This document shows positions 14,636 to 59,081 of a DNA stretch of 64,000 nt, piece after piece. The position numbers and the translations under genes are program-made. The stretch is taken from positions 188,067-252,066 of IMG/VR virus record IMGVR_UViG_3300022719_000283, one strand, 5' to 3'. The notes beneath the pieces were generated by a model. The model was not told the DNA's origin and made no database searches. It saw only the letters and a list, made by a program, of their open reading frames with translations. The DNA comes from a virus (Duplodnaviria; Heunggongvirae; Uroviricota; Caudoviricetes). How positions within the stretch are numbered: the stretch's first letter is position 1; every line of letters begins with the position of its first letter.

Positions 14636-15205
14636 CTATAGAGGGTTCACCGCCAAATCCCGCAAGAAATCGTGGATTTCGTGGGAATTTCGAAACCATT
14701 CGGCCTCGAGCCGCAGATGGGAAAACCGCGCGTGTAAAGAGGCTTCCGTCTCCATCGTCCCAGGAAGAGTGGCGAGGAGAACGAGTTTCTGAGCATTCGC
14801 GGTTTGGAGCTCCGCAATTCGACGATCAACATTTTGAGTCCAGCCCACCTTGATAGCCCCTTCGGTGCCCGCCTGGATGAAGTAGACCAAACCCTCCCGC
14901 TCTTGAAGGGGTACGTAATCGGCGTCATACCGTACAGACGTGACCTCTACTCGGCCGTGGATCTGGAAAGATTGCCACAGGCCAGTCGAAAGAACCCCGT
15001 ATAGAGGCGTACTGGGATCCGGGCCGTAAGCGTAACGGACTCCTCGATCTCCGACGCTGCCCAGACGTACATAATCCATGCACAGAACATGCGTAGGTGA
15101 TCTCGGGTCCAGCACACGTACGCGATGCGTGGGGACAAAGGGTTCTTCAAGATCAGGGTAACGATCTTGAACGTCCGCACGCGTCACGGTTAGACGCCGA
15201 GCCAC
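14636..15205 (-). CDS. T5orf172 / GIY-YIG-like domain protein
   Basis: VYFIQAGTEGAIKVGWTQNVDRRIAELQTANAQKLVLLATLPG...EASLHARFSHLRLEAEWF matches the T5orf172 (MUG113) signature Y.I...G..KIG.T.N...R...LQT..P..L.....G....E..LH..F...R..GEWF. Confidence 0.6.
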   Translation of the reverse strand: MARRLTVTRADVQDRYPDLEEPFVPTHRVRVLDPRSPTHVLCMDYVRLGSVGDRGVRYAYGPDPSTPLYGVLSTGLWQSFQIHGRVEVTSVRYDADYVPLQEREGLVYFIQAGTEGAIKVGWTQNVDRRIAELQTANAQKLVLLATLPGTMETEASLHARFSHLRLEAEWFRNSHEIHDFLRDLAVNPL

Positions 15206-15235: not shown

Positions 15236-15871
15236 CTACGGGCTATCCAACATCCAGATCTCGACTGCCTTGTTGACAGCATAGTCCCTTGGCATCGCGC
15301 CGAGGTCATAGCTTTCGTAGAGTTTTTCAGCGCGTGGCTTCATCCGTTCACGAATAGTTTCTTCGGGAACTCCGAAAATCCGCTGCACCCGAAAACTTTC
15401 ACGATATGCCTGGACTTCGAGTGCCCAGCGACCTTCCGGCACTACGTACATAGCCCCCATCTCCAAAGGCGTGTGCTCATCGTATTCCCGGACATGAACG
15501 AGCTCGTGCCAAAGGATCTCGGCTTGGACATCCTCGGAGAGCTCATCCCAGTGCTTGGCGACAAAGATCTTCGTCGGAAAGGTGGTTGTGAAGCGGTCCC
15601 ACTTCTCGATCCCCTGCGCCTTGTGGAGGATCCGAATCCCATTGTCCTCGATCTCCTGCATGGCAACGAGCCACGCTTCGTGTGGATCCGAAGGGATCTC
15701 CCCGTCCCGCGCCATCTCCGAAGTGCGCTTGGCCAGGTCTTCGTAAAAAAGATCCTGGGGAACGCCATCCTCGTAGACCGGGGGCCCGACAACCTCAATG
15801 GTGGGCCCGTGAGGACACCCGGTCATAAAAAGGCCGAAAGCAAATACGAACGGAGTGAGTACCTTCTTCAT
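15236..15871 (-). CDS. Lipoprotein with HExxH zinc-metallopeptidase motif
   Basis: The N-terminus MKKVLTPFVFAFGLFMTGC has a signal peptide and a lipobox (LTGC). WHELVHV supplies the HExxH motif. Confidence 0.5.
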   Translation of the reverse strand: MKKVLTPFVFAFGLFMTGCPHGPTIEVVGPPVYEDGVPQDLFYEDLAKRTSEMARDGEIPSDPHEAWLVAMQEIEDNGIRILHKAQGIEKWDRFTTTFPTKIFVAKHWDELSEDVQAEILWHELVHVREYDEHTPLEMGAMYVVPEGRWALEVQAYRESFRVQRIFGVPEETIRERMKPRAEKLYESYDLGAMPRDYAVNKAVEIWMLDSP

Positions 15872-15989: not shown

Positions 15990-17354
15990 TTACGTGGGCT
16001 CCACAACCGACCCAGCACGCCATTCATCCGGCGTGGGCGGTCTCCATGCAGGATCTCGAACCCAGGGGTGATCAGCCCCGTCACCGTGACAAAGTTCAGA
16101 ATCTTCGAGGGACCATGCCGGTCGCCCTTCTCCGCGTTTCTGTCGTTTGAGCGCATACTCAGCTCGAAGAGCCTCTGACCGCGTGAAATAGGGCCCATAT
16201 AATGCACGCGCCACCCACGGACGATGTTTTGCGGTGTACTTCCCACCGCCTTTCAATCCCGGACGCCCATCCGCTCGAAGTCCGTTGTGCTGCCTCAGAC
16301 GGGCCGCCGGGTCCACAGCCATGCCAACGTAGAAAAACCCTGGAAGTTGTTGTCCGCGTTTGCCCACCCGACGTTGCTGGCTCTGAATGACGTAGACCCA
16401 AAAGAGTTTCCGCGGCAGAGTAGGAACCACGGTGTTGAGACATAGAGGGTCCCCCTGCGCCTCTCGAATCAGGGCCGCTTCTTTTTCCAAAGCCTCAAGC
16501 TCATCTCCACACTCGTGTAGAACGGAGAGCTGTGCTTCCTCGAAATCCTTGTCATTCAAGGCTTCGATGTGTTTTTTCTTCTTGGCCTTCGACTTGTGGT
16601 TGTTAAACCGAAGATCGTAGTGACTCGAAGACCCCAGGTAGTAGGTGCTGTCCGCGAACTGAATCTTGTAGACCGCCCACCGGCGCCGGAGTTCACGTTT
16701 TTGTCTGATCAGCTCCTTGTTCCTGGCGTAGTACGCCCGATCCTGGTGTCGATTCTTACGGCGGTACCTTTTGATTTCGTCCTTGTTCTGTGAACGCCAT
16801 CGCTGCTGACGATCCTTCACTTCTTCGGGGTGATTGGCAGCGTACTCCCGGGCAACCTGCCGGCGCTCGTCTGCATGACGAGTGTACGATCGTCGGTTCT
16901 GGACGCGCACCTTCTCCGGATTGCGTTCTTTCCACCCCCGGTTGTAAGCAGCACGCTGTGCCTTCACCTCGGGACGTGCTCGGCGACGAGCACGGTTTTC
17001 TTTCACCTTCTCAGGGTTGGCTTTTCGCCACGCCTGGGTCGTCTCATTCAATCGTTTCCGGTTTGCTTTCCGGTACTCCTGCTGGCACAGCTTGCACCAA
17101 ACCTGAAGACCGTCTTTCCGTGATTGATCCTTTCCAAATGCGGACAAAGGCCGTTCTGACCCGCATTTAGAGCACCTCTTCACCCCACTAAGATAACACG
17201 AAAACGGTGAAATCCAAAGCGGAGGGGTACACCGAACGTCACTACCGATTGAGCAGCCAGTGAAGATGCGGAGCCGCGTAGTAGGCCCACGCATAGTCGG
17301 CGTACCCATGGTTGTCGAACACCGCCTGCGTGGTCTCGGATCCTGCAAGCACAA
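15990..17354 (-). CDS. GIY-YIG homing-endonuclease-like protein with two GIY-YIG modules and basic NPEKV repeats
   Basis: VYKIQFADSTYYLGSS and FWVYVIQSQ...GFFYVGMAVDPAARLRQHN...RSEALRAEYALK are GIY-YIG-type motifs. The repeats AWRKANPEKVKENRARR, GWKERNPEKVRVQNRRS and ANHPEEVKDRQQRWR are typical of phage homing-endonuclease linkers. The true start may lie downstream of 17354. Confidence 0.6.
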   Translation of the reverse strand: MCLQDPRPRRRCSTTMGTPTMRGPTTRLRIFTGCSIGSDVRCTPPLWISPFSCYLSGVKRCSKCGSERPLSAFGKDQSRKDGLQVWCKLCQQEYRKANRKRLNETTQAWRKANPEKVKENRARRRARPEVKAQRAAYNRGWKERNPEKVRVQNRRSYTRHADERRQVAREYAANHPEEVKDRQQRWRSQNKDEIKRYRRKNRHQDRAYYARNKELIRQKRELRRRWAVYKIQFADSTYYLGSSSHYDLRFNNHKSKAKKKKHIEALNDKDFEEAQLSVLHECGDELEALEKEAALIREAQGDPLCLNTVVPTLPRKLFWVYVIQSQQRRVGKRGQQLPGFFYVGMAVDPAARLRQHNGLRADGRPGLKGGGKYTAKHRPWVARALYGPYFTRSEALRAEYALKRQKRGEGRPAWSLEDSELCHGDGADHPWVRDPAWRPPTPDEWRAGSVVEPT

Positions 17355-18190: not shown

Positions 18191-20353
18191 TCAGACCGTC
18201 AGGAACCAGCCAGTGTGCTTCTCGAAAGTCTTGGCAAGCTCTTCCTTCGGCACCGTGTAGTTCGCCACGATCACCTGAACGCCATCAGCCCTCTTCGCGA
18301 AAAAACCGATGCGGTACTTGTCGTCCTGCTTGGTGATCGCGCAGCGCGTGCCCTTGGAGGCCACCCGGTTTGGCCACCGGAACGCCACCGTCTCCTTGAG
18401 GAACCGGAACCGCCGGGCTCCGATGAGAGAAGCCAACTTCTCCTGACCTCCCAGGGCCTCCAGGATCTCCTGGACCACAGGATCTTCGCTGGCTTGCTTG
18501 TTCTCGGCCTTGAGCTTGTCGATGAGCTTGCTGACCTCGACCTCGGACATCTTCTTGACCGAGTCTTCGGACGGGGAGCCGCGGCCGAGACTGTCCAAGA
18601 GGCTCATAGCGTAGGACACCTGCTTCTCAGAGGCGACGGTCTCCTCCTTCTCCATGTCCTCGATGATCTTGGAGATCTCATCCTTGGTCTTCTTTTGAAG
18701 ATCCGACTTGGAGTAGCTTTTCCCCTTCTCCTTGGCGAGATCCATGGCGAACTCAACCTGAGCGGCAGTCGCCTTGTCGCTTTGGGCCTCGGCCTCTGCC
18801 GCGAGTTTCGAATGGACGATCTTGAGCTGGATGACGGGTCGTGCCGGTTCGCTGGCTCCCGGCTCCCACATCAAGGGCATTCCCTGACCTCGATCCACCA
18901 GCAACTCCTCTTCTTGAGAGGTTCCCCGAAGCGCTACTCCGGGGATGGCCGGATCGAAATCTGAGGCCACAAGGCGCGTTGCAATACGACGTGGTTTGGG
19001 TTCCCCGGGCTCGTATGTGATCTCCACGAGGTCTCCTTCACGCAGGTTTCGAAGCATCTGGTGCTGCGAGAACTCGTCGACTGCAAAGTCGCGGATGTTG
19101 ATGTTGATGTTGGACTCTTTGGTGACCTCTCGAAGCAGGGCGGTACGGAAATCCTGGTTCTCCCTGGCGAGAGCAATGAGAGCTCGGGTTGAAATTTTGG
19201 TCGTCATGGTCTTGTCCTTCTTCTTGGGCGTCTTGGGAAGGCTGTCCCAAATCTTGCCCAAGATTTGGAGATCATCCTTGTCGAGCCGGGGAGCCTGCTC
19301 GATCTTGTTTCGGGTGCTGTTTTTTCCTCGTATCTTCTTGGAGGCGTTATGGAGGAACTGGCCTACCGTCTTTCCGGCGTCCTTCGCTTTGTGTTCCACG
19401 TATTTTTGGAGCACCTCATCGTTGTCAACGGTGAACTCCAAATCCTCGAGCTCATTGCCGTTCTCTTTCCACCAATCACGTCCTTCCTGGAAGGACATGA
19501 GCTCGCTGATGTAAAAAGGAGGGCCTCCGCCGGTATCGATGAGCTCTTCTTTGAGCTCGCGAGGCATCTGATCCACTTCGTTCTCCGGAATAGGAGCATC
19601 AAACCCAAGCAGGGGCCAGACGTAGTACCCCACGTAGTCAGAATCCGCGTTTCCGGCCCCGGTAGTCACGATGTGACTGCAACCTGCGTCTTTTACGGAA
19701 GCCACCTGAGTAGCAAGCATACGTGTACCGGTTCCCGGCGGTGCTTCTTCACTCAACTCCAGGATCATGTTTCGAACACTTCGGAGCCGACCATTTTTGA
19801 AGGTGAGCAGGCGCTCCATCTCCATGATGTGATCGCCTTCTCCCAGTACCGTCACGGCAGATCGGTCACCCAGTGTCTGGACCACAATCCTGGCCTCCTT
19901 GATCTGCCCTGCTAACCCGCCTCCTCCAGCCAAATCCATCACCATCTGTTCTGGGGTCATTCCAGCCGATTTGGCTTGCTCACCCAAAAGACCGTGGAGC
20001 TCCTGGCGGATTTTCTCGGGATCTTCTTCCAGGGCCCCGTACTGAACCTTCACCCCTCGATACCGATCGGGATCCCGATTGGAGATGAGCTTTGTGGATT
20101 TGAGGGCTTCCTCCGGGATCCGTCGTTGTGAAGGCTGCTCCCCTTCCTGGCGCCGCTGACGAGCCTTACTCCACATCTGATAGATGCGCGCCTGCTCCGG
20201 ATCCGGCAACGAATCGAAAACTACTTCGCGTTTACGGGCATTCGGGTTCGGGTTGTGGAACCTCCGTCCTCGAGTCCATTCCAAAAACTCGGGAGTGTAC
20301 CGGGCCCGACGACGCATGCCAGGAGGCGGAGCGAAGAGATCGAGGTCCACCAC
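18191..20353 (-). CDS. Large proline-rich protein (720 aa), paralogous over about 300 aa to the C-terminus of 20353-23835
   Basis: The N-terminus MVDLDLFAPPPG matches the motif repeated in the upstream gene. The block GDHIMEMERLLTF...RMLATQVA...GYYVWPLLGFDA...GRDWWKENG aligns with GDHINSMRRYISF...KMFATQVA...GYYVWPRFGYDG...ARDWWKDRG. Its start overlaps the upstream stop by 1 nt. Confidence 0.7.
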   Translation of the reverse strand: MVDLDLFAPPPGMRRRARYTPEFLEWTRGRRFHNPNPNARKREVVFDSLPDPEQARIYQMWSKARQRRQEGEQPSQRRIPEEALKSTKLISNRDPDRYRGVKVQYGALEEDPEKIRQELHGLLGEQAKSAGMTPEQMVMDLAGGGGLAGQIKEARIVVQTLGDRSAVTVLGEGDHIMEMERLLTFKNGRLRSVRNMILELSEEAPPGTGTRMLATQVASVKDAGCSHIVTTGAGNADSDYVGYYVWPLLGFDAPIPENEVDQMPRELKEELIDTGGGPPFYISELMSFQEGRDWWKENGNELEDLEFTVDNDEVLQKYVEHKAKDAGKTVGQFLHNASKKIRGKNSTRNKIEQAPRLDKDDLQILGKIWDSLPKTPKKKDKTMTTKISTRALIALARENQDFRTALLREVTKESNININIRDFAVDEFSQHQMLRNLREGDLVEITYEPGEPKPRRIATRLVASDFDPAIPGVALRGTSQEEELLVDRGQGMPLMWEPGASEPARPVIQLKIVHSKLAAEAEAQSDKATAAQVEFAMDLAKEKGKSYSKSDLQKKTKDEISKIIEDMEKEETVASEKQVSYAMSLLDSLGRGSPSEDSVKKMSEVEVSKLIDKLKAENKQASEDPVVQEILEALGGQEKLASLIGARRFRFLKETVAFRWPNRVASKGTRCAITKQDDKYRIGFFAKRADGVQVIVANYTVPKEELAKTFEKHTGWFLTV

Positions 20354-23300
20354 TACCCCTTCTCCTTGACCAACTCTTTCAGAAACAAAGCGCGGAACTG
20401 AGGAACTTCTCCGGCCAGGTCAAGAAGGTAAGTCGCGGCTTTTTTCTTGCGCTCTTTCTTCTCGTTGGTCTCCCGGACCTCCTCCCCCATCTTGTCCCAG
20501 ATCTCGTCGGAGATCTCCTCTTCCTCGGGCCCAAAGGTGGGATACCACTCGTGTTGATCCTTCTGGTCCTTCTTCGCTGCTGCTCGGTTCAGGAATTTGT
20601 CAGCCCCTACATTGGCCTTTTTCTTCGCAACATCTCGCACGTACTCGGTCAGGTACTTGAAGCTTCGGGAATCGGAGTCAAGGTCAAACGACAAATCTGA
20701 ACGGCTTCCGCGATCCTTCCACCAGTCACGAGCTTCCTGACTCGCCATCATCACGTCGAGAAAACGCAGGCCATTAGGAGCTTCCGGTCGGATCTGACGA
20801 ATCTGGTTTTGAATCTCTTCGGGCATCCGCTCAAACTTGGAGCTGGGAAAATTTCCGTCGTACCCAAACCGTGGCCAAACGTAGTATCCGTTGTACTGGT
20901 CATTCCGCCACGGGCCGTGTCCCGCCGCCGACACGTTGATGTGTTTGAACCCGTACTTGTTTGCTGCCGCCACCTGCGTAGCAAACATCTTGAGCCCCAT
21001 CGATGGAGGAGCGGAAGATCTAAGTGTGAAGTGCGAATTGCTAATCGAGTAGGGACTTCTATCCTGAAAACTGATGTAGCGACGCATGCTATTGATGTGA
21101 TCACCGGCCCCCGTCACAGTCACTTCTGATCCTCTAACCTTGATGGAGAGGCTCTTGAGTGATTTGGCCAGACCCCCAGCTCCGGACAAATCCGCGATAA
21201 CATGTCTTGGATTTGGCCCGTCCGCAGGCAAGTTCAACAACCTGCGCAGGGTTCCGTCATTCCCCCCAGTCACCGAAATCCGCACATCGTCGTAACGGCC
21301 GGACTGCATGTTGGGAGAGAGCTCTCCCTTCCCGGGTTCGGCGAATCCCCCAGGAGGTTCCTCAAGTGGGGGCAGAAGGGCCTCGGGTAAACTGCCAGTC
21401 TTGGTGAGGTAAGCCCAGCGTTTCAGGTCGGTTTTCGACAGCTCTTCAGGCTCTCCTTCGGGGTTACCCGTCTCAGCGTTGATAGGTTGAATCTTGAGCT
21501 TGTCCCCGATCGATTCGACACGAACCCATTTGGGGTTCCGGTAGTGCATCGCTTTCACTACCTGACCTTCACGAAGACGGGCGAACGACGTGACGCGTTG
21601 TCCGGTCTCGGCCCCTTCAGGAGAGAGAGCAATCTTGTATTCCCCTCCTTCCAGATCAGCCTTACGAACCCTCGTGGGGCGTCCCACACCACGACCCTCG
21701 TGCACATCTTGAATCTGAAATTGGGTCTTTGTCCGATGCACGACTCGGTACAGGTTATCCCCCTTCTTGACGTACGTACCGGGACCAACATCGGAAGGTG
21801 AGCTCACCGTGTGTCCAGGACCTATGAACCGCTTGTATGGGCCATGATTCCTGATGGAGGCGGCGGTGAAAGGCTCAGGACCTGCCCTCTGCCGGCCGCT
21901 CTCGTGCATGAGTCGAGCCATTACTGTGCCGTCTGGCCGAATTTCGACAACCTCACGATATAGGCTACTACCTTTCAGGTAGTCGTTACGGAAAGTGTCA
22001 CCGACCCGAAGAGCGCCAGGAAGGGTGATCGGTTCGCCCACGGGAACATGGGGTTGTTGCTCCTGCCTCTGTTGCTCCTGCCTCTGTTGCTCCTGCCTCT
22101 GTTGCTCCTGCCTCTGTTGCTCCTGCCTCTGTTGCTCCTGCCTCTGTTGCTCTTCGTCAGGATTCGGCTCGCGTCGATACTGACCGTAATTGCTATACGG
22201 ACCTGATCGCTGAATCTGCAACCGAGGGGTCGTTTGCGGGTCTTCCATAGGAGATCCGTTTCGAGCATTCACGCGCTGTGTCTTGAGATCTCCATTTGGC
22301 AACACTTCCAGCACCTTGCGGACCGTTCCATGGTTACGCAAGACGTTATTGGAGATGACATCTCCAGCACGGAGCTGGTTAGTGTCGTCGATGTTGTCCC
22401 CGACAGAAACTCGCGGCCCCTCGTCCGCTTGCTCGATAATCTTGTGGTTTTCGATCTGAGAACCGCTGATATGGGATCTCCCAATGAGGCCCCCATCCTC
22501 ATCGAGATTCTCAGTCCTGACGTTGTTGCCACTAATCTCCACGATCCTACGACGTGGAGCATTTTGCCGATCCGATTGAATCACATCTCCAACACGCAAA
22601 CGATCGAGACTTTGAACCCGCTCGCCCACTTGAGCTCGAGGTTGTGCCTCTTCCTCGCGCTCTTGAAGAACATAGTTTCGACGGAGGAAGTTCTCTGCGC
22701 CGCTCGTGCGCGTGCGACTACTCCAGGAGCCGTCGTCTTTCTTCCACTGAAACCGAACCACATGATCATCGACACTAACAACGCGAATGTTTTGGGGGGT
22801 GCCTGCTTCGGATTTCAGCACCATGCCCTCGCTGAGCTGATCAAGGCTCTGCACTTGAGATCCTGGCTCCAACCGGCCAACAGGTTGTGGCTGTTGTTGT
22901 TGCTGCTGCTGGCGCTGTTGCTTCCAGGCTTCGTACTCTCGCCCGATTGTGTTACGGAAATTCTCGTAGTTCATCGCGGTGTTGAACCGAATACGGGGTT
23001 CGGCTCGGTTGCGACGACGGCGACGCTGAACTGGATCGGGGTGCTCCACAAGCTCTCGGCCGCCTTGGTGTTTCTCGTTGAGGAACACCTGGAACAGATC
23101 TTCGTTCTCGAATCGGGCGGGCTCTCGACGCGGTCGACGTGGTCGCTGAGGAGCCGGACGGCGAGGAACTCCAGGAGGGGGCGCAAAAAGGTCCAGATCG
23201 TCGGATGGAGCTGCCGGGGGTGCTGGAGCTTGAGGCGCCGCAGGAGGTCGCTCAGGAGCTCGAGAAGGGGCACTCGGGGGCGGCGCGAAGAGATCAAGCT

Positions 23301-23835
23301 CGGGTTCGGGCTCAGGTTGCGCCTCCGCCGGTTCAGGGGCCCTCGATGGGCGTCTTGGAGGAGCACTCGGGGGCGGGGCGAAGAGATCAAGCTCGGGCTC
23401 CCTACGGGCTTGGGAAGGGGCCGCAGGGCGCTCAGGAGCGGGTTCTTGCGCAGCTCCTGGCGGGGGAGCAAAAAGGTCCAGACCATCGTCCTGACGCTGA
23501 GGCTCGGAAGAAAAGGGCTGGAACAGATTGAACTCAACCGCACGACCACCACCCCTCAAAATCGCATCTCGGAGCTCTTCATGCTGCTGAGCTAGATCGA
23601 GGATCTTGGCAGCTCGCTTTTTGCGTTGTTGGGCCTTCTCGCGCCTCCGTTTTTCCATGAGTTCGCGCCTCATCCGGTCCCACACGCTATCCATGATCTT
23701 CTCGTCCTCTTCCGTCAGGACAATCTCTTCGACCAGGCGACGCATCTGGGTCTTCGTCTTGGGGCGCGGTTTTCGGGAACTGGCCATGAGTCGGGTCCTA
23801 AAAGGGTGCAGGTCTCCCGTCCAAGGGAGACCCAT
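20353..23835 (-). CDS. Giant proline-rich protein (1160 aa) with 4 copies of ELDLFAPPP, a (QQRQE)n tract and a C-terminal domain shared with 18191-20353
   Basis: Long ORF. Repeats LDLFAPPPGAAQ, ELDLFAPPPSAP (twice) and DLDLFAPPPGVP. (QQRQE)7 is encoded by the 15-bp tandem repeat. C-terminal GYYVWP domain. Confidence 0.7.
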   Translation of the reverse strand: MGLPWTGDLHPFRTRLMASSRKPRPKTKTQMRRLVEEIVLTEEDEKIMDSVWDRMRRELMEKRRREKAQQRKKRAAKILDLAQQHEELRDAILRGGGRAVEFNLFQPFSSEPQRQDDGLDLFAPPPGAAQEPAPERPAAPSQARREPELDLFAPPPSAPPRRPSRAPEPAEAQPEPEPELDLFAPPPSAPSRAPERPPAAPQAPAPPAAPSDDLDLFAPPPGVPRRPAPQRPRRPRREPARFENEDLFQVFLNEKHQGGRELVEHPDPVQRRRRRNRAEPRIRFNTAMNYENFRNTIGREYEAWKQQRQQQQQQQPQPVGRLEPGSQVQSLDQLSEGMVLKSEAGTPQNIRVVSVDDHVVRFQWKKDDGSWSSRTRTSGAENFLRRNYVLQEREEEAQPRAQVGERVQSLDRLRVGDVIQSDRQNAPRRRIVEISGNNVRTENLDEDGGLIGRSHISGSQIENHKIIEQADEGPRVSVGDNIDDTNQLRAGDVISNNVLRNHGTVRKVLEVLPNGDLKTQRVNARNGSPMEDPQTTPRLQIQRSGPYSNYGQYRREPNPDEEQQRQEQQRQEQQRQEQQRQEQQRQEQQRQEQQPHVPVGEPITLPGALRVGDTFRNDYLKGSSLYREVVEIRPDGTVMARLMHESGRQRAGPEPFTAASIRNHGPYKRFIGPGHTVSSPSDVGPGTYVKKGDNLYRVVHRTKTQFQIQDVHEGRGVGRPTRVRKADLEGGEYKIALSPEGAETGQRVTSFARLREGQVVKAMHYRNPKWVRVESIGDKLKIQPINAETGNPEGEPEELSKTDLKRWAYLTKTGSLPEALLPPLEEPPGGFAEPGKGELSPNMQSGRYDDVRISVTGGNDGTLRRLLNLPADGPNPRHVIADLSGAGGLAKSLKSLSIKVRGSEVTVTGAGDHINSMRRYISFQDRSPYSISNSHFTLRSSAPPSMGLKMFATQVAAANKYGFKHINVSAAGHGPWRNDQYNGYYVWPRFGYDGNFPSSKFERMPEEIQNQIRQIRPEAPNGLRFLDVMMASQEARDWWKDRGSRSDLSFDLDSDSRSFKYLTEYVRDVAKKKANVGADKFLNRAAAKKDQKDQHEWYPTFGPEEEEISDEIWDKMGEEVRETNEKKERKKKAATYLLDLAGEVPQFRALFLKELVKEKG
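22054..22158. repeat. Seven tandem copies of a 15-bp unit (ctgttgctcctgcct), last copy degenerate
   Basis: Read directly at 22054-22158. It lies inside the 1160-aa ORF and encodes QQRQEQQRQE... on the minus strand. Confidence 0.9.
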
Positions 23836-23876: not shown

Positions 23877-25280
23877 CTAGCTCTTGAAGGTGAGCAGCGG
23901 CCGAAGACGAAGGACCGGGCTTGCAAGTCCTTGCTCTTCTTGGATTTTCACGATGGGATCGATGTCCTTGTAGGCTGCGGGAGCTTCCTCCCAGAGCCGC
24001 TCTTCACGAAGTGTCACGCAGTCCACCCCATCGAGTCCAAGATCGAAATCCGGCCGGCCTTTTCGAGTCATCTCAAACCGGGTCCGAGACCGACCCGCCC
24101 CGTGGGAAGCCGACCGCAAGAAACGGTCGTTCCCCAATCCTCGCATTACGTACGAGGATGTTCCCATGGAGCCGGGAATCAGAACCCACTGTCCTTCCCA
24201 GGCCGGCGTCGCACCCTTGCGATGAACGAAGGCATCGTCTTCGTAGGTCACGATGTTATGGGACACGTCGTAGAAACAGCTCGCATCAACATTTCCGAAA
24301 ACCTGACGAAATCGGTAACGCACCATCGTGGAGAGAAGGGCACGGTTCACAGCAGCGAAGTTAGCCGCACATCCCATGGCAAGCATGTACTCGTGGGCGT
24401 CCTCATTGTAGAGCGGGAACACTTCCGGCCACTTGAGCCCTTTCGGCCACTTTTTCTTCGCAATCTCTTGGAACCGTGTACCGATCCCCTTCCCCACCGA
24501 ACGGGAACCTGTGTGAATCATGAACACGATGTCTCCGTACTTCAGGTTGGGCCAGGTCCATTGGAGAGCCTCGTAATCAAGAACCTCTTCGACCATCTGG
24601 ATTTCGACGAAATGGTTCCCTCCTCCGACCGTCCCCAGGTCTGGGTCTCGGATCACGTCCCTGCTGTAGTCGATCCGGTCTTGAACCCACTTGGTGTCGG
24701 ACACGAAAGACCCCTGGTGCCAGATGTACTTGGCATCAAGGGCCAAGTGATCCTTGGCGCGAGCCATCAATCCCATCGGGTTCTTATAGAGCTCCTGTTC
24801 CCAACCATAGGCCCCGTGCTCGTAGATCGCGTGCAGGGTGGACGGAGTCATCGGAAGGTCCCGGGTCCCCAGCAAAAGATCACCGCGAAGTAGCTCCACG
24901 AGCTCGTCCTTGCGAGCGAGGAATTGGTCGACCGTTACGTCGATCAGATCCAAACGCATCCCGCAATTGATGTCCGTCCCGATGGCCTGCGGAATCACCA
25001 TGTCGGCCGTTGCCACAACGCATCCGACAGGAACGATGTTGCCAGGATGAAAGTCGGGAGTGGCACAGGCTTGACACACGTGGCCGCCACTTGGGTGGGA
25101 AGCCGAGGCAAATGACACGAGCTGTTTCACCGCTTTGGTCTCGAGCGGGGAGCCTTCGGGCAAAAGAATCTCAGCCGCCGGGCCTTCGTGAGAGGCGCGA
25201 CGAACCTTGTAAACAGGACCGTCTTGAGAAATCTCGATGCCTTCACGCAGGAGGGCTCGAGCCAGTCGTTTGAATTTCAT
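23877..25280 (-). CDS. rtcB: RNA ligase RtcB (3'-phosphate/5'-hydroxyl RNA ligase)
   Basis: GTVGGGNHFVEIQ, HTGSRSVGKGIG, IPGSMG and SHGAGR are RtcB active-site signatures. The start is set at the internal MKFKRL (residue 50 of the 516-aa ORF) to drop an implausible N-terminal extension. Confidence 0.85.
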   Translation of the reverse strand: MKFKRLARALLREGIEISQDGPVYKVRRASHEGPAAEILLPEGSPLETKAVKQLVSFASASHPSGGHVCQACATPDFHPGNIVPVGCVVATADMVIPQAIGTDINCGMRLDLIDVTVDQFLARKDELVELLRGDLLLGTRDLPMTPSTLHAIYEHGAYGWEQELYKNPMGLMARAKDHLALDAKYIWHQGSFVSDTKWVQDRIDYSRDVIRDPDLGTVGGGNHFVEIQMVEEVLDYEALQWTWPNLKYGDIVFMIHTGSRSVGKGIGTRFQEIAKKKWPKGLKWPEVFPLYNEDAHEYMLAMGCAANFAAVNRALLSTMVRYRFRQVFGNVDASCFYDVSHNIVTYEDDAFVHRKGATPAWEGQWVLIPGSMGTSSYVMRGLGNDRFLRSASHGAGRSRTRFEMTRKGRPDFDLGLDGVDCVTLREERLWEEAPAAYKDIDPIVKIQEEQGLASPVLRLRPLLTFKS

Positions 25281-25429
25281 GATGCTGAACTCCAGTGAAC
25301 CTCTCTCAACCGCGCGGGAGAGAGGCTCGGAAAGGGTCTGGTTGTTCAGCAGCCGCGGCAGTGCGCGGACAGCTCCTTGTAACCCAAGACCCGAAGAAGT
25401 GCAAGCGGGGCTGCCGGTAAGGTGCATGC

Positions 25430-26074
25430 GTGGCCGTCGTCCTTCCCGGCAAGTTCATCTTCCTGGCCCATCCTCACACCGGATCCAGCGCCATGGTCCT
25501 GGCCCTCCAAGACGTGTTCCCGGAAACATTCGATTTACGACCCCACCACATGCGCCTCACCGATGTTCGAAGTCATCAGGGAGGGGTAAGGATCACACAA
25601 ATCAGCCGGATACGTCAGCGTGTTTGGGATGAACGTCCGCACAAACGGATGCGAGATTCCGACGTGGATCCGGAGATGGTGCGGGCAGCTATCCAGGGAA
25701 CTGAGCGCATCTTCACGATCATCCGCAACCCTTACGACTTTCTGGTGACCTGCTACGTGCGCCGAGGACGGGATGCTTCCTTCGAAAAGTTTGTCCAGAG
25801 CTACAACGAGCCACCCTATATCGTGGACGGCCGGCTGTACTACCACGAACCCGACTGCGAGACCGTTTTACGTTGGGAAAAGCTTCAGGTCCAGCTCAAC
25901 AAGCTCATGCGGGAACTGAAGCTCCCCAAGGTCGAGCTCGGGAAACACAACGTCACGAAGGACAAGAAGCCTTGGGAAAGCTACTACACCCCCAAGGCTT
26001 TCGAAATCGTGAACGCACGGTTCAGAAAAGAGTTCGAACCATTCTACGAGCCCCGCAAGTCCGGTGCAGGATAG
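25430..26074 (+). CDS. Sulfotransferase-family protein
   Basis: The N-terminal P-loop-like LAHPHTGSS corresponds to the 5'-PSB PKSGTT motif. IRNPYDFLVTCY matches the 3'-PB motif R[ND]PxDxxVSxY. It is on the plus strand and overlaps the 3' end of the Tpt1 gene by 31 nt in convergent orientation. Confidence 0.5.
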   Translation: MAVVLPGKFIFLAHPHTGSSAMVLALQDVFPETFDLRPHHMRLTDVRSHQGGVRITQISRIRQRVWDERPHKRMRDSDVDPEMVRAAIQGTERIFTIIRNPYDFLVTCYVRRGRDASFEKFVQSYNEPPYIVDGRLYYHEPDCETVLRWEKLQVQLNKLMRELKLPKVELGKHNVTKDKKPWESYYTPKAFEIVNARFRKEFEPFYEPRKSGAG

Positions 26075-26658
26075 ATCCCCTTGCCGATCGAATTGTAACG
26101 ACGGTCCTCTGGCCAGAGCAGAAACTCGATGGGCACGTGATCCGTATACCAGACTCCGTTACCAGTCAGGTAAAACTTGTGCCCCTCATCGTGCATGACC
26201 TTGGCTCGGACCTTGATGATGATCGGACGACCCCGCCGCTCACCCACGCGAATGGCAGTCTCGTAGTCAGGGGATAGATGGACCGCATGACGATTCATCT
26301 TGAGTAGGCCCTCTTCTCGGATCGCAGGTACGAACCTCTCCGGAGTCCCGTGGTACAGACACTCCGGAGGCTCCCTCTCTTCGTATCCGAGGTCCACCGG
26401 AACGGAGTGTCCTTGTCGGGCGCGGATTCGTTCCCCGTCTTCGCTGAGTTCAAACCGTTTCTTGTCGTTGGTGTCGACGACTTCTTGCAGGAGCTCTCGG
26501 GTGAGTCCTCGAGCCCGTTTCTGATCGACAGAGCGCTTGAGTAGCTCATCCACATCGGCCCATCCGGCGTTGTCCAGCTCGATGCCGATTTTGCCCGGGT
26601 TGTGCCGGAGCACCAAGCTCAGGAACTTCGAATAGTTCTTCAGCTTTCGTTCTTCCAT
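26044..26658 (-). CDS. kptA: RNA 2'-phosphotransferase Tpt1/KptA
   Basis: SKFLSLVLRHNPGKIGIELDNAGWADVDEL, RFELSEDGERIRARQGHS, LYHGT and HAVHLS match the conserved Tpt1/KptA blocks. Confidence 0.85.
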   Translation of the reverse strand: MEERKLKNYSKFLSLVLRHNPGKIGIELDNAGWADVDELLKRSVDQKRARGLTRELLQEVVDTNDKKRFELSEDGERIRARQGHSVPVDLGYEEREPPECLYHGTPERFVPAIREEGLLKMNRHAVHLSPDYETAIRVGERRGRPIIIKVRAKVMHDEGHKFYLTGNGVWYTDHVPIEFLLWPEDRRYNSIGKGIYPAPDLRGS

Positions 26659-26668
26659 CGCGGCTCTC

Positions 26669-27001
26669 CTACTCTTCGGGTTCCATCGAAGACATCAACG
26701 GGTAATCGCTTCGACGCGCTAGTTCATGCACAATGGCACATTTGGTTTCGGCGATCTCGTGAGTATAGACCCCGGCCACCGACAGACCTTCTTGATGCAC
26801 TTGCATCGTGATCCGTTCCGCTTCGGTGCGCCCCTTACGGAAGACCTGCTGAACGAGCTGTACCACCCATTCGACAGGGGTGAAGTCATCGTTGTGAAGA
26901 AGGACTTTGTAGCGCCGGGGTTTTTGGAGTTCCTGCTTCTTTTTCTCGAGAAGACCCACTCCTCCCTGGCGGTTGTCTTCAGTATCATCGCGCTCAGGCA
27001 T
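26669..27001 (-). CDS. clpS: ClpS, ATP-dependent Clp protease adaptor
   Basis: YKVLLHNDDFTPVEWVVQLVQQVF...AERITMQVHQEGLSVAGVYTHEIAETK matches the ClpS core (YKV.LLNDDYTPMEFV...VH..G...CGVYT.EVAETK). Confidence 0.8.
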   Translation of the reverse strand: MPERDDTEDNRQGGVGLLEKKKQELQKPRRYKVLLHNDDFTPVEWVVQLVQQVFRKGRTEAERITMQVHQEGLSVAGVYTHEIAETKCAIVHELARRSDYPLMSSMEPEE

Positions 27002-34291: not shown

Positions 34292-34849
34292 CTACCCCGT
34301 ACTCCGAATCCGTTGCCGGGCCTCCATGATGGCGAACCCGAGCAGATTCTGTCCCCGCCACTTGTGAGGGTTATGGGCGGCCTTATCTTCGCGCCGAAGA
34401 CCGATGCCCCAAATGCAGTCGTGTGGGCTGGCCTCGACGAGCACCATGTCCTTAGTGCCCAGCAGGTACTTTCGAAGCTCGGTATCCTGGCTGAACTTGG
34501 CAACATTGCCTTTGACCACAGCCTCGAACTTGTGAGCGTCCCACTTGGCCTGATCCCAGTTACGAACCTGACGACCCAGCTCCTTCGCTTCGTCGGGGCC
34601 ACCACAGGCGAGGATCTGCTGGAGTGTGTCCTCGTCACCCATGACCCGAGCCTTTTCGGCCATCATCCCATGCTCGGCCGTAGGGTACTCGATACCGTCA
34701 ATCTCGAAGTCCGAAAAGTGCCACTGACTGAAGACATAGGGCCCGATGGTGCTGACATCGTGTCCCTTGCGGCCCCAAAACATCAGGAACTCGGGACGGT
34801 GCCCTTCGTCCCAAGCTTTGGTGAGAGTTTCTCGATCTCGAAATTCCAT
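34292..34849 (-). CDS. NADAR (YbiA-like) domain protein
   Basis: FWG...FSQWH..DFEIDGIEYPTAEHGMMAEKA...AKELGRQV..WDQAKWD...NVAKFSQDTELRKYLLGT...LVEASPHDCIWGIGL matches the NADAR/DUF1768 blocks. The start is set at the internal MEFRD. Confidence 0.65.
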   Translation of the reverse strand: MEFRDRETLTKAWDEGHRPEFLMFWGRKGHDVSTIGPYVFSQWHFSDFEIDGIEYPTAEHGMMAEKARVMGDEDTLQQILACGGPDEAKELGRQVRNWDQAKWDAHKFEAVVKGNVAKFSQDTELRKYLLGTKDMVLVEASPHDCIWGIGLRREDKAAHNPHKWRGQNLLGFAIMEARQRIRSTG

Positions 34850-34904
34850 ACGCCCCTTATACCCGATGCGGATCTCGCGATCCTGGATTTTCACGGAAAG
34901 CGCG

Positions 34905-35426
34905 CTACGGCTTCCGAGAAGCCCACCGCTTGATCGCGCGACGATCCTTCCCCGTCGCTCGGTCGCTGAGCAGGGTACCTTCCAGGTGGTCGTATTCGTG
35001 TTGGAGGGCCACCGAAAACAGGTGGTTGTGGGTCGCATCTAGCGTGAACTGTTCACCCTGGCGATTAAAAGCCGTTACCTTCACCCACTCCTGGCGCTCT
35101 ACCTCGGCAAGTAGACCAGGAAAACTGAGGCAGCCTTCGGGACGCACAACCTGATTGTCATTAGTAGGTTCGAGTTCAGGATTGATGAAGACCCAAGGCT
35201 CCACCAGGCGGTTGCCGTTAATGGGTCGCTGGTCGATGATGAACAGCCGCAAGTTGCGTCCCACTTGTGGCGCCGCAAGCCCAACTCCCTCCTGGTAGAA
35301 CATGGTGTAGATCATGTTCTCGATGAACTCCTGGAGACCCTCGAGCTCGTCGAGATCTACCGGAACGCTTGGCGCCTCAAGACTCGGTGCCGGGTATTCG
35401 AGGACCGTGAGAAGCTTCGAAGGCAT
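34905..35426 (-). CDS. def: Peptide deformylase
   Basis: GLAAPQVG, EGCLSFPG and HEYDHLEG are the three canonical PDF motifs. Confidence 0.85.
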   Translation of the reverse strand: MPSKLLTVLEYPAPSLEAPSVPVDLDELEGLQEFIENMIYTMFYQEGVGLAAPQVGRNLRLFIIDQRPINGNRLVEPWVFINPELEPTNDNQVVRPEGCLSFPGLLAEVERQEWVKVTAFNRQGEQFTLDATHNHLFSVALQHEYDHLEGTLLSDRATGKDRRAIKRWASRKP

Positions 35427-35504: not shown

Positions 35505-36272
35505 ATGGTCGACTCCGAAAAGCTCCGCGTTCTCATCGCTGAGGACAACCCAGGGGATGTTGCAATCTTAGAGCATATTCTGGCGGGGTTGAATACAGAA
35601 TTGCGGCATACGAGATCGCTCAAGCAGCTCCGTGAAGACGGCCACATTTGGGACCCAGACGTGGTCCTGCTCGACCTTCATCTTGAGGACAGCCAGGACT
35701 TCATGGTGACGGCACGGACCGTAGTCAGTCTCTTCCCTACCATTCCCGTCATCGCCGTAACCGGGCTAGATGAAAAAGAGTTCGCCCTCCGAGCGCTTCA
35801 AGCAGGCATCTCCGCGTACCTGATCAAAGGCACGTTGTCAGGGTCTGATCTGATGAAACACATCCACGAGGCCATCGCGCGCAAGAAAGCTCAGTACCGA
35901 TCTCTTACCACAGCCGTCTCACAGGATGAACTACGCGCCATGGTCAAGGAGGCGGTGGAAGAAGCTCTGACCGATGAGCCTGAGCCCCCGACCTCAATGC
36001 GCACCGTGATCCTCGCCGTCTTGGCAATCCTTCTGTTGCTAGGGGGCACCGGTGCATGGGCCTATTTCCAGCTCGCCAAAATCGAAAAGCAACGCAAAGA
36101 GATCCATCGCAAGAGCTCCGAAGATCTTCGGGCCGAGAAGTTCCAAGAGTTCCAAGAGCTCCGTCAGGAGCATATGGACAACCGAAGGCAGTGGGAAACC
36201 GGTGGGGAAGTCGGTCCCAAGCCCAAGAAGCCACCTCGTCTTCTTCAACTCGAACAAGAACTTGCCCAGTAG
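35505..36272 (+). CDS. Response-regulator receiver-domain protein with C-terminal TM helix and coiled-coil
   Basis: RVLIAEDNPGDV...VVLLDLHL...YLIKG gives the receiver-domain Asp and Lys positions. ILAVLAILLLLGG is a TM segment, followed by a charged helical tail. Confidence 0.65.
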   Translation: MVDSEKLRVLIAEDNPGDVAILEHILAGLNTELRHTRSLKQLREDGHIWDPDVVLLDLHLEDSQDFMVTARTVVSLFPTIPVIAVTGLDEKEFALRALQAGISAYLIKGTLSGSDLMKHIHEAIARKKAQYRSLTTAVSQDELRAMVKEAVEEALTDEPEPPTSMRTVILAVLAILLLLGGTGAWAYFQLAKIEKQRKEIHRKSSEDLRAEKFQEFQELRQEHMDNRRQWETGGEVGPKPKKPPRLLQLEQELAQ

Positions 36273-36274
36273 CC

Positions 36275-37444
36275 ATGTCCGACCATTACCTCAAAGCTGA
36301 GCTCTATGATCGACTTAGCTCCGACCCCACCCTCTTCGAATGGCTTGAGGCCGGGAGCTTAGACGGTGTCTGGTTTCTCAACGTCGAAAACTTCATCGAC
36401 CAATGGTATTCGCCACGGTTCAAGAGACTTTTCGGCTACGAAGATCACGAGATCCCCAACACATTCCAGTGGTGGCAAGAAAACATCTTCCCCGAAGACA
36501 AACAACTTGCTCTGGACAGCTACTACAAACACCTCGAGAACCCCGAAAAGTTCCCCTACGACCAAATCGTCCGATACCGACACAAGAACGGCTCCACTGT
36601 CTGGGTTCGTTGTCGTGGGCTTGTTTTGAAGGAGAAAGGCAAGCCTGTGCGTATGCTAGGAGCCCACACCGACATCACTCCCATCAAGAAGGCTGAAATC
36701 GAAGCAGGCCAGCGAATTGAGGAACTTGAGACCCTGTCCGCTGCTCTTCAACGTTCCAACTACGAACTCGAGCAGTTCGCCTACCTAGCAAGCCACGATC
36801 TACAAGAACCACTGCGCATGGTGGCATCCTTCGCCAAGATGATCGACGACACGTATGGCGAAACGGGAGCCCCTCTTGATGAGCGTGGGCGCCAATGGCT
36901 CGGGTACCTGGTCGAAGGGGCAAGTCGGATGCAGATACTCATCAACAGCTTGCTCTCCTTGAGTCGGATCAAGGAACAGGTAGAGGAGATGGCATCCATC
37001 GACATGGAACAGATCATGGAAGAGATTGTCACCGATCTCGGTATCCGTATCATCGAGAAGAACGCCAAGATCCTCACCGGAGACCTACCGTCTTTTATGG
37101 GGGTACGCAGCCAAGTACGACAGGTGTTTCAAAACCTCATCTCTAATACACTTAAGTTCCATGGCGACAAGCCACCAGTGGTTCGCATCCGTGGGGACGA
37201 ACTCGATGATGGGATGGTGCGCTACACGGTTCATGATGAAGGCATCGGGATCCTCCCTTATGACGCGGGCAAGATCTTCGAGGCGTTCTATCGAGGGAAA
37301 GAAACGCAAGACATTTCGGGAAGTGGTATCGGGCTTTCCATTTGCAAAAAGATCGTCACATTACACGGCGGCACTATCCGATGCGAATCGGAACTCGGCG
37401 TGGGAACGACTTTCATCGTTACGTTCAAGGGAACAGGAAAATGA
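36275..37444 (+). CDS. Sensor histidine kinase (PAS - HisKA - HATPase_c)
   Basis: H-box LASHDLQEPLR. G-boxes HDEGIGI and GSGIGLSICKKIV. An N-terminal PAS-like segment. The start is set at the ATG just after the stop of the response-regulator gene, not at 36056 inside that gene. Confidence 0.8.
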   Translation: MSDHYLKAELYDRLSSDPTLFEWLEAGSLDGVWFLNVENFIDQWYSPRFKRLFGYEDHEIPNTFQWWQENIFPEDKQLALDSYYKHLENPEKFPYDQIVRYRHKNGSTVWVRCRGLVLKEKGKPVRMLGAHTDITPIKKAEIEAGQRIEELETLSAALQRSNYELEQFAYLASHDLQEPLRMVASFAKMIDDTYGETGAPLDERGRQWLGYLVEGASRMQILINSLLSLSRIKEQVEEMASIDMEQIMEEIVTDLGIRIIEKNAKILTGDLPSFMGVRSQVRQVFQNLISNTLKFHGDKPPVVRIRGDELDDGMVRYTVHDEGIGILPYDAGKIFEAFYRGKETQDISGSGIGLSICKKIVTLHGGTIRCESELGVGTTFIVTFKGTGK

Positions 37445-58054: not shown

Positions 58055-58096
58055 ACCCTATCTGAAAACATACGCAAACAGTCGGGTAGTTTCTTC

Positions 58097-59068: not shown

Positions 59069-59081
59069 CGAAAAACGCTCC

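Follow-up and report, generated by a model that had tools for sequence, protein, structure and literature searches.

On its minus strand, the 64-kb window (the whole stretch of 64,000 nucleotides analysed here) contains two large paralogous genes, B and C, together with a short gene, A, and a phosphatase-like gene. Genes A, B and C are tightly packed, probably in one operon that includes the downstream phosphatase, and have the following positions.

23545..23787, minus: gene A module (MASSRKP...), 84 aa in relatives, fused in frame to B here
20353..23835, minus: ORF, 1160 aa as read in the window
23540..23541, minus: 1-nt deletion (GTGG to GTG) joining gene A to gene B, from a DNA alignment of the window, L004 and L001
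20353..23544, minus: gene B proper, 1063 aa in relatives
18191..20353, minus: gene C, 720 aa
17517..18188, minus: dual-specificity/tyrosine phosphatase-like gene (Pfam DSPc, E=4e-7, below the gathering score)

The source is an uncultivated and probably large phage. Its viral origin is indicated by orthologs on two IMG/VR viral contigs and by the absence of relatives of C among the 185,579 species genomes scanned, and a tblastn search with B against 50,697 phage records returned no match. An earlier note, made from the sequence alone, had taken the 1160-aa ORF for a single protein, and comparison with two related contigs, L004 (JGI, about 100% identical to the window) and L001 (ENA, 61% identical), corrects this. 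The DNA alignment reveals that one G present in both contigs is absent from the window between 23541 and 23540. In L004 and L001, gene A (MASSRKP...GGGRGG, then stop) is a separate 84-aa gene that ends at the deletion site, and the 1063-aa gene B opens at an overlapping GTG (VAVEFNLFQ...). Because both contigs lack the deletion and have two genes there, the 1160-aa ORF is, as judged from this alignment, a fusion of the 84-aa gene A with the 1063-aa gene B, and the fusion is either a real variant or an assembly error. At the other end of B, the stop codon TAG and the first GTG of C have one base in common, with AAGGAG upstream; the 1-nt overlap described previously thus stands in the window and is not constant among relatives, being a 1-nt spacer in L004 and a 4-nt overlap in L001. 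The phosphatase gene begins 2 nt beyond C and keeps its synteny with B and C at all related loci (L001, L003, and L004), and on these grounds it probably belongs to the same operon. The order RtcB, A, B, C, phosphatase is identical in L001 and L004, while L003 has one fused B+C protein with a single GNAT domain there instead. The neighbours include RNA-repair genes (RtcB and Tpt1), ClpS, the phosphatase, and homing endonucleases. A promoter/terminator scan of the operon gave nothing above background, and no structural genes were found near B and C within the window.

The paralogy of the two large proteins and their shared region of about 300 aa, both proposed in the earlier note, are borne out by BLASTP (33% identity over 295 aa, E=7e-37), which aligns residues 873-1158 of the 1160-aa ORF with residues 131-413 of C. 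A second homologous stretch lies downstream of the motif (E=2e-4). On this sequence evidence, B and C are full-length paralogs of one modular effector. Module order in B is an LF-motif array, a basic N-domain, six SH3/Tudor-like barrels, a GNAT-fold domain, and a helical H module; in C it is one LF motif, the N-domain, the GNAT-fold domain, the H module, one SH3-like barrel, and a C-terminal part. Their coordinates are as follows.

23173..23535, minus: disordered proline-rich array of B with five motifs (codon coordinates; AF2 pLDDT 36-45)
23518-23535, minus: degenerate motif EFNLFQ at the N-terminus of B
23458-23481, 23368-23391, 23275-23298, and 23173-23196, minus: LDLFAPPP copies in B
22903..23103, minus: basic N-domain of B (BLASTP E=2e-4; AF2 pLDDT 55-78)
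21400..22857, minus: six SH3/Tudor-like beta-barrels of B
20581..21219, minus: GNAT-fold domain of B (motif-A position APPSMGL; GYYVWPRFGYD)
20356..20550, minus: H module at the C-terminus of B (EISDEIWDKMG...LDLAGEVPQFRALFLKEL)
20321..20344, minus: LDLFAPPP of C, aa 4-11 (AF2 pLDDT ~35)
19349..20056, minus: GNAT-fold domain of C, aa ~100-335 (motif-A position APPGTGT; GYYVWPLLGFD)
19109..19300, minus: H module of C, aa 352-415
18809..19072, minus: single SH3-like barrel of C, aa ~428-515
18194..18808, minus: C-terminal part of C

The basic N-domain of B consists of a helix, two short strands, and a helix, contains RRRRR, and is homologous to residues ~15-70 of C. The barrels of B occupy ORF residues 327-392, 402-468, 482-557, 602-670, 677-735, and 747-812, and barrels 3 and 4 are separated by one long helix (aa 559-593) formed by the (QEQQR)n repeat. 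All are small five-stranded barrels of the SH3-like/Tudor-like fold, resembling FeoA, the DtxR C-terminal domain, uL2, CarD, the UvrD C-terminal domain, and the TraI translocation-signal domain. In contrast to known SH3-like/Tudor-like domains, those of B and C show no Pfam family membership at the sequence level, and the six-barrel tandem array of B with its inserted single helix is unusual. An HMM of the H modules of B and C identifies gene A as a stand-alone H module (E~1e-14). In the C-terminal part of C, residues 516-645 form two three-helix repeats like the lambda Red-beta C-terminal domain, and residues 646-720 form an alpha/beta domain like frataxin, TriTu, and the MotA C-terminal domain.

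The shared domain has a divergent GNAT fold (acyl-CoA N-acyltransferase superfamily) and is followed by the H module of about 60 aa. Its secondary structure follows the GNAT order, beta1-alpha1-alpha2-beta2-beta3-beta4-alpha3-beta5-alpha4-beta6. A profile of 25 family sequences (A8), both window copies included, matched essentially only GNAT acetyltransferases in the PDB, with a best E value of 9.7e-5 and alignment on beta4, motif A, alpha3, and beta5. This match holds at the family level and not for B or C alone, neither of which singly reached threshold against Pfam, NCBIfam, or PDB sequences; searches of both against Pfam, PHROGs, and NCBIfam likewise gave nothing above threshold, the only matches being two PHROGs without a known function at the C-terminal end of C. 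Pfam GNAT models (Acetyltransf_1/7/10) match inside homologous copies, with P0021 scoring 48 bits versus a cut-off of 20.7, and Pfam and NCBIfam scans of B, C, and 8-15 sampled family members gave either no matches or weak GNAT matches only. No significant match in the PDB was returned by Foldseek with the full-length C model or by phmmer with P0021, a canonical family member. TAL-effector repeats, the sole PDB matches of a 16-sequence shared-domain profile, were rejected as chance because the same segment forms GNAT helices alpha1-alpha2 in the model; that score summed weak per-repeat scores of 2-5 bits each over 38 N-terminal residues (GMTPEQMVMDLAGGGG versus LTPEQVVAIASNGGG). Membership in this well-known superfamily accounts for the GYYVWP domain that the earlier note had singled out and leaves the repeated LDLFAPPP motif unexplained.

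The fold is now assigned to a very large domain family: the shared-domain profile detects at least 3,465 cluster representatives (50% identity) at E<=1e-3, with 2,563 at E<=1e-10. Among the best-scoring 150 of these, many are giant multi-domain proteins of phages and mobile elements, 1,000-3,900 aa long and with 2-4 copies of the domain. Other members carry an ADP-ribosyltransferase (P0018), an InPase (P0030), or a SocA/Panacea domain (P0021), and solo versions are present in cellular genomes; the gene context of these cellular versions and of a two-copy relative (P0011) was uninformative. The idea that B and C are multifunctional is therefore reasonable as an effector reading, since this domain often recurs in giant multi-domain proteins of phages and mobile elements.

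Polyvalent proteins of phages and conjugative elements combine two to fifteen distinct effector domains per polypeptide, and the GNAT families described in those of phages, one of them typically beside an ART domain, were assigned to a RimI-like, protein-modifying clade (Iyer et al. 2017, J Bacteriol; PMC5512222). The family studied here resembles those GNATs in being a divergent GNAT fold in phage and mobile-element proteins, in often occurring in several copies within giant multi-domain proteins beside an ADP-ribosyltransferase or InPase, and in having solo cellular versions; it is set beside the two GNAT families of Iyer et al. by description, which does not establish family identity. P0018, P0021, and P0030 clearly qualify as polyvalent by domain number. 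B and C also combine several domains, yet only one in each is recognisably of catalytic type, the rest being barrels and helical modules, and they lack a packaging-associated domain (MuF, portal, or DarA-N), none of which was found in either. They also carry an N-terminal motif array and SH3-like barrels, in tandem in B, which would set them apart from the GNAT proteins of Iyer et al.; a word search of that paper found no mention of SH3 or proline-rich regions.

The GNAT-fold head would probably be the working part of B and C, acting as a protein acyltransferase or as a binding-only derivative. Canonical motif A ([QRHK]-G-x-G-[LIVMF]-[GA]) is present in 39 of 149 near-full-length copies from 147 listed proteins outside this clade. 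At the corresponding beta4-alpha3 position, where GNATs have Q/R-x-x-G-x-G/A, C has A-P-P-G-T-G, which retains G-x-G and has lost the Q/R, while B has A-P-P-S-M-G and its orthologs have A-P-K-G-M-G. Since neither protein has the Q/R, acyl-CoA binding may be absent. The degeneracy of motif A in both copies, and the binding-type modules that make up most of B and C, would fit an alternative in which the domain serves structure or binding without catalysis and the two proteins are structural virion or assembly proteins rather than enzymes. We consider this unlikely, because GYYVWP..G.D and W and Y residues do not vary even among very distant copies of the domain, which suggests a conserved functional site, and because the same N-terminal module is also found on a kinase-like head, as would fit a targeting module joined to an enzymatic head.

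The five LDLFAPPP copies reported earlier were all recovered, at aa 119, 149, 180, and 214 of the 1160-aa ORF and at aa 4 of C. With the start of B corrected, EFNLFQ becomes a fifth, degenerate motif of this protein, and both large proteins therefore open with an LF motif at about residues 4-12. The description of both as proline-rich applies to the large one, within aa ~98-240 only, and not to the small one. Synonymous codons differ among the copies, except that copies 2 and 3 are near-identical in DNA, which argues that the peptide is under selection and is not merely the product of recent DNA duplication. Searched with a relaxed form of the motif, the 95,202 six-frame residues of the window yielded only 5 background matches, none with the acidic context, and the motif was not found in its other real ORFs; a role as a general tag on the phage's other proteins was rejected on this account.

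Among homologs, where the earlier note had asked for conservation, 38 copies were found in 17 proteins, every one within the disordered N-terminal region. The motif occurs in all orthologs with a readable N-terminus, with one copy always at residues ~4-12, and B orthologs have 2-6 copies each. The consensus is [DE]-hydrophobic-[DNS]-L-F-x-[RP]-P-P-G; F is present in 36 of the 38 copies and is preceded by L, M, I, or V, while position 2 is mostly F, L, or V and position 3 mostly D, N, S, G, or T. Across nine orthologs of C, the motif is L-x-L-F-x-[RPC]-P-P, and its second L, its F, and its two P residues are invariant. These alignments support a genuine short linear motif that is conserved and multivalent. 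The array of LF motifs, the N-domain, and the barrels recur in P0165 and P0166, joined to a PI3/4-kinase-like head, and this N-terminal region is therefore a portable module, probably for docking or targeting. A search of the literature for LDLF in phages found nothing relevant.

The LDLF core had been likened to the bacterial beta-clamp-binding motif QL[SD]LF, in which Q1 is the most conserved residue (PMC9690074). The LF motif does have a hydrophobic-x-L-F core with D, S, or N at the third position, lies in a disordered region, and is sometimes terminal, and most copies match positions 2-5. It differs in lacking the Q, in its extended x-[RP]-P-P-G tail, and in occurring in up to six tandem copies. 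Clamp motifs are known at an N-terminus, as in Hda, and the peptide with which T4 proteins bind their clamp is acidic and of the LDFLF type. Use of the host clamp by phage proteins is on record (PMC12867686). The motifs could on this basis anchor B and C on the DnaN ring of the host, placing the enzyme on DNA, or soak DnaN up and block host replication. However, Q1 is missing from all 38 copies, and the conserved downstream P-P lies outside the known clamp motif and has no role in it, so that the clamp reading is unsupported; moreover, the clamp is a dimer with two sites, which five or six motifs exceed, and the window shows no clamp gene. Tethering to DnaN is thus decidedly unlikely.

Another possibility is that the motifs are ligands of the SH3-like barrels of B and C themselves, producing a multivalent network (a scaffold or condensate) or auto-inhibition. 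Motifs and barrels always occur together in one protein, in GNAT-headed and kinase-headed relatives alike, and the barrels are similar to SH3-like domains, among them the DtxR/IdeR type, which binds an internal proline-rich peptide. Motif and barrel numbers, counted by eye, do not track each other (5:6, 4:5, 2:6, 6:about 2-3, 3:1, and 1:1), and in both AF2 models the motifs are disordered and undocked (pLDDT 35-45) although each modelled chain also contains its barrels. Intramolecular docking on another domain was rejected on these two grounds, and self-association as a whole is very improbable.

On the favoured interpretation, an acyltransferase-type effector would carry a multivalent signal for targeting (cargo loading). 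A, B, C, and probably the phosphatase would form one operon in which B and C are modular GNAT-fold effectors with an N-terminal docking array, a reading that we hold with slightly less than even confidence. The array would be a portable signal for multivalent docking, by which the protein is brought to a partner that is repetitive or oligomeric. By analogy, the single most likely partner may be the phage's own capsid interior, a tentative choice that is itself well short of probable. Residues 6-10 of P1 DarB are a capsid-targeting signal, the first 30 aa being sufficient, and T4 IPIII has an N-terminal capsid-targeting sequence (PMC9024508). Such signals lie within the first ~10-30 residues, as does the motif at residues ~4-12 in B and C homologs. 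The two cases have in common a conserved short peptide in the first ~12 residues of large phage effectors that is transferable between cargo domains; the likeness drawn is one of position and transferability, and the known signals are single, whereas the array of B is five-fold. If the array loaded B and C into the capsid, they would travel with the DNA, and the virion-internal or ejected location proposed earlier would follow, again by analogy. The absence of packaging-associated domains from both proteins and of structural genes from their neighbourhood in the window weighs against this, and the AF2 models, with every motif undocked, point to no particular partner.

A host hub protein is the next most likely partner. 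Docking on a hub such as RNA polymerase, the ribosome, or a protease adaptor, with the barrels and the basic domain (also kept in the kinase-headed P0165 and P0166) binding nucleic acid and the GNAT head modifying the target, would suit the position of the operon among RNA-repair and ClpS genes and the RimI-like, protein-modifying assignment of polyvalent-protein GNATs (PMC5512222), and is rather unlikely in our estimation. More broadly, and doubtfully, the [DE]-x-[DN]-L-F-x-[RP]-P-P-G array might be an undescribed portable multivalent signal with which a clade of uncultivated phages loads different heads, GNAT-fold or PI3/4-kinase-like, onto a single repetitive partner. This could be the capsid's inner surface, the array then being a phage equivalent of the cargo-loading peptides of encapsulins, or a ring or hub of the host, for instance the sliding clamp, which would thereby be soaked up. 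If the array has a cargo-loading or host-docking role, it would provide a compact, transferable tag (~10 residues) with which proteins could be sent into phage particles or to a host hub, and would represent a new architecture of phage effectors, in which a targeting array is followed by SH3-like barrels and an exchangeable enzymatic head. Otherwise, the locus is an accessory operon of an unremarkable, though elaborate, kind in an uncultivated phage.

The two coupled paralogs that the earlier note described as proteins of 1160 and 720 amino acids with a 1-nt overlap are encoded by the following ORFs.

20353..23835, minus strand, large ORF, 1160 aa
18191..20353, minus strand, gene C, 720 aa

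The TAG stop codon of the large ORF overlaps the first GTG of C by one base, with AAGGAG just upstream. Three further contigs contain this locus: the JGI contig L004, which matches the window at about 100% identity; the ENA contig L001, 171 kb long, with protein identities of 61 to 73%; and the Logan contig L003. In L004 and L001, gene A (MASSRKP...GGGRGG*) stands ahead of the large gene B as a separate gene of 84 aa, and B in these relatives starts at an overlapping GTG, reading VAVEFNLFQ or VAVNFDLFQ, which gives a protein of 1063 aa in L004. Compared with these two contigs, the window lacks one G (GTGG to GTG, between 23541 and 23540), which puts A and B in one frame. Therefore, the ORFs and their shared base stand as described, but the "1160-aa protein" is A (84 aa) fused to B (1063 aa), owing to a recent frameshift or to an error in assembly. 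With the corrected start, the LF motif, a short peptide of the LDLFAPPP type, lies at residues about 4 to 12 in both B and C. At the B/C junction, the window has TAGTG, L004 has TAGAGTG, and L001 has ATGA, and the tight coupling of the two genes is kept in all three forms. Small indels between the window and L004 occur exactly at gene junctions (23540-23541 and 20351-20355), and RtcB, unbroken in the window, is called as two genes in L004; indel errors may be present in the window assembly, the L004 assembly, or both.

LDLFAPPP occurs in four copies in the large ORF and in one copy at residues 4 to 11 of C, as counted in the earlier note. Apart from copies 2 and 3, whose DNA is almost the same, the five copies differ in their synonymous codons, and thus the peptide itself is conserved. 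A relaxed motif pattern gave five context-less background matches in the 95,202 six-frame residues of the window, and the repeated motif in the paralogs is real rather than a chance observation. Conservation in homologs, which had been proposed as a check, was found in every homolog with a readable N terminus, totaling 38 copies in 17 proteins.

LF motifs in homologous proteins
C orthologs: L-x-L-F-x-[RPC]-P-P, with L, F, P, and P invariant
B of L001: NFDLFQAPPAG, DLDLFGRPPSA, DLNLFARPPGV, and DVDLFGRPPGA
P0014: four copies
P0026: two copies
P0032: MALDFDLFQPAP and two EFADVLAPPPDR

LDLF had also been likened to the beta-clamp-binding pentapeptide, the consensus of which is QL(S/D)LF (PMC9690074). 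Positions 2 to 5 of the consensus fit the LF motif, but its Q is present in 0 of the 38 copies, and the conserved x-[RP]-P-P-G tail of the LF motif is foreign to it; therefore, binding to the beta clamp is considered improbable.

The region of about 300 aa shared by B and C, referred to as the "GYYVWP" domain, was recovered by BLASTP with 33% identity over 295 aa (E = 7e-37), aligning large-ORF residues 873 to 1158 with residues 131 to 413 of C, and a second, weaker match covers the region after the motif (E = 2e-4). No Pfam or NCBIfam model matched B or C, and the PHROG search returned only two families of unknown function. When 1.84 billion cluster representatives were searched with a profile built from the shared domain, 3,465 of them matched at E ≤ 1e-3, of which 2,563 reached E ≤ 1e-10; among the best 150 proteins listed, many are 1,000 to 3,900 aa long and carry two to four copies. 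Pfam GNAT models match within family copies, with 48 bits in P0021 (cutoff, 20.7) and further matches in P0034, P0017, P0024, and P0030, and the canonical motif A, [QRHK]-G-x-G-[LIVMF]-[GA], is found in 39 of 149 near-full-length copies, which come from 147 listed proteins outside the B/C clade. A 25-sequence family profile including both window copies matched essentially only GNAT acetyltransferases in the PDB (best E = 9.7e-5, aligned over beta4, motif A, alpha3, and beta5), and the AlphaFold2 (AF2) model of the C domain (pLDDT, 77 to 90) has its elements in GNAT order. Taken together, these results identify the "GYYVWP" domain as a divergent member of the GNAT fold, and its family is one typical of polyvalent phage proteins. 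The motif-A position is APPGTGT in C, APPSMGL in B, and APKGMGL in the B orthologs. Partner domains among family members include ADP-ribosyltransferase (ART), InPase, and SocA/Panacea domains, and Iyer et al. (2017, PMC5512222) reported GNAT families from polyvalent proteins of phages, including one that typically adjoins an ART domain. The known fold thus explains the shared domain, which had been proposed as a possible refutation of the earlier note, but the conserved, portable, and multivalent LF-PPP array and the tandem SH3-like barrels remain new. GNAT helices 1 and 2 (aa 120 to 145 of C, window ~19930-20000; aa ~862 to 890 of B) resemble one TAL-effector repeat ('GMTPEQMVMDLAGGGG' vs 'LTPEQVVAIASNGGG'); PDB matches to TALEs arise only from 2 to 5 bits summed over many repeats, and the likeness is probably due to chance. 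The start peptide MIFLEEEF or MIFREE.F is conserved in many giant members of the GNAT-like family (1,500 to 2,500 aa; P0039, P0066, P0077, P0078, P0090, P0093, P0097, P0100, P0106, and P0117) and may be another N-terminal signal.

A separate helical module makes up the final ~60 residues of the shared region, and A is a stand-alone copy of it (HMM E ~ 1e-14). In the AF2 model of B, which covered the N-terminal 735 residues, the array of LF motifs is disordered (pLDDT, 36 to 45) and is followed by a small basic helix/hairpin/helix domain (N-domain) and six beta-barrels (pLDDT, 81 to 93). Between barrels 3 and 4, the (QEQQR)n repeat (B aa 559 to 593; window 22057-22161) is predicted to form one long single alpha-helix, which varies in length and sequence across orthologs (ERE-, RQQ-, or REE-rich) and so looks like a spacer of variable length. 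In C, the GNAT and helical modules are followed by one SH3-like barrel of the B type, two three-helix repeats similar to the C-terminal domain of lambda Red-beta, and a terminal alpha/beta domain similar to frataxin, TriTu, and the MotA C-terminal domain. The paralogy of B and C thus extends over their full length. The LF motifs might bind the SH3-like barrels of B and C themselves, but this is unlikely, as the number of motifs does not follow the number of barrels and all motifs are undocked in the AF2 models.

Two more distant proteins, P0165 (641 aa) and P0166 (983 aa), share the LF array, N-domain, and barrels, with three motif copies in P0165 and ADFDLFAPPPS plus five D[TS]LF[GE]DRPPGAPPHP in P0166, but have a different head, in which a PI3/4-kinase-like domain (GHEDRHAGN...IDNGYA; Pfam E = 6e-4) at the C terminus replaces the GNAT domain. 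The N-terminal module is thus portable, which speaks for a role in targeting or docking that does not depend on GNAT chemistry. The P0166 gene (L005, 10001-12952) has dozens of small uncharacterized ORFs and an AcrVA2-like gene as neighbors.

The best reading of these proteins is that a multivalent N-terminal docking array would carry a putative acyltransferase-type effector. The position of the LF motif at residues ~4 to 12 recalls N-terminal capsid-targeting signals, such as that of P1 DarB, which involves residues 6 to 10 and for which the first 30 residues are sufficient, and the similar signal of T4 IPIII (PMC9024508). A repetitive partner, e.g., the capsid interior, would be a good fit for a multivalent array. 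Capsid cargo loading may be the single most likely use of the array, tentative as it is, followed by docking to a host hub. Three observations count against cargo loading: the known signals are single, the neighborhood of A/B/C contains no packaging domain or structural gene, and no other ORF of the window contains the LF motif.

Gene order is constant across the contigs, with RtcB, the A/B/C locus, and then a DSP-type phosphatase. In L003 (4978-8787), a single protein of 1269 aa, P0016, takes the place of B and C. It joins the N-part of B to the C-part of C with one GNAT domain in between, an arrangement that looks like either the ancestral unduplicated state or the outcome of a deletion between the paralogous domains. 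There are few close homologs: C has 9 orthologs and B about 7, and two proteins of 750 aa each contain the domain twice. Orthologs are located on two IMG/VR viral contigs and are absent from the 185,579 species genomes scanned, and L001 carries an Acb2/Tad1-type gene; the source is most likely a large uncultivated phage.

The window encodes RtcB, Tpt1/KptA, ClpS, NADAR, and PAPS-reductase/DUF3440 proteins, and an RNA-repair-type cluster lies upstream of A/B/C (23877-27001).

23877-25427, same strand as A/B/C, upstream, RtcB ligase
25430-26074, opposite strand, between RtcB and Tpt1, 214-aa ORF of unknown function
26044-26658, same strand as A/B/C, upstream, Tpt1/KptA 2'-phosphotransferase
26669-27001, same strand as A/B/C, upstream, ClpS-like protein
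34292-35038, minus strand, NADAR-domain protein
36056-37444, plus strand, complete PAS-HisKA-HATPase sensor histidine kinase
15236-15871, minus strand, 211-aa ORF with a lipoprotein-like N terminus (…FMTGC) and an HELVH motif

An AAA_28 ATPase gene lies immediately upstream of Tpt1 in both L001 and L003. The histidine kinase and the NADAR protein are located in otherwise phage-like DNA. No family match was obtained for the 211-aa ORF, a possible small metallopeptidase gene whose position downstream of the phosphatase is syntenic in L001 and L003. In addition, selfish endonuclease genes are unusually dense in the window (1879-4308, 14636-15205, 15990-17354, 39225-40667, and 56849-59963), including DUF7487/homing endonuclease repeats, T5orf172, a 454-aa protein with two GIY-YIG stretches, a TnpB (OrfB_IS605/Cas12f-like TNB), and three adjoining LAGLIDADG-type genes.
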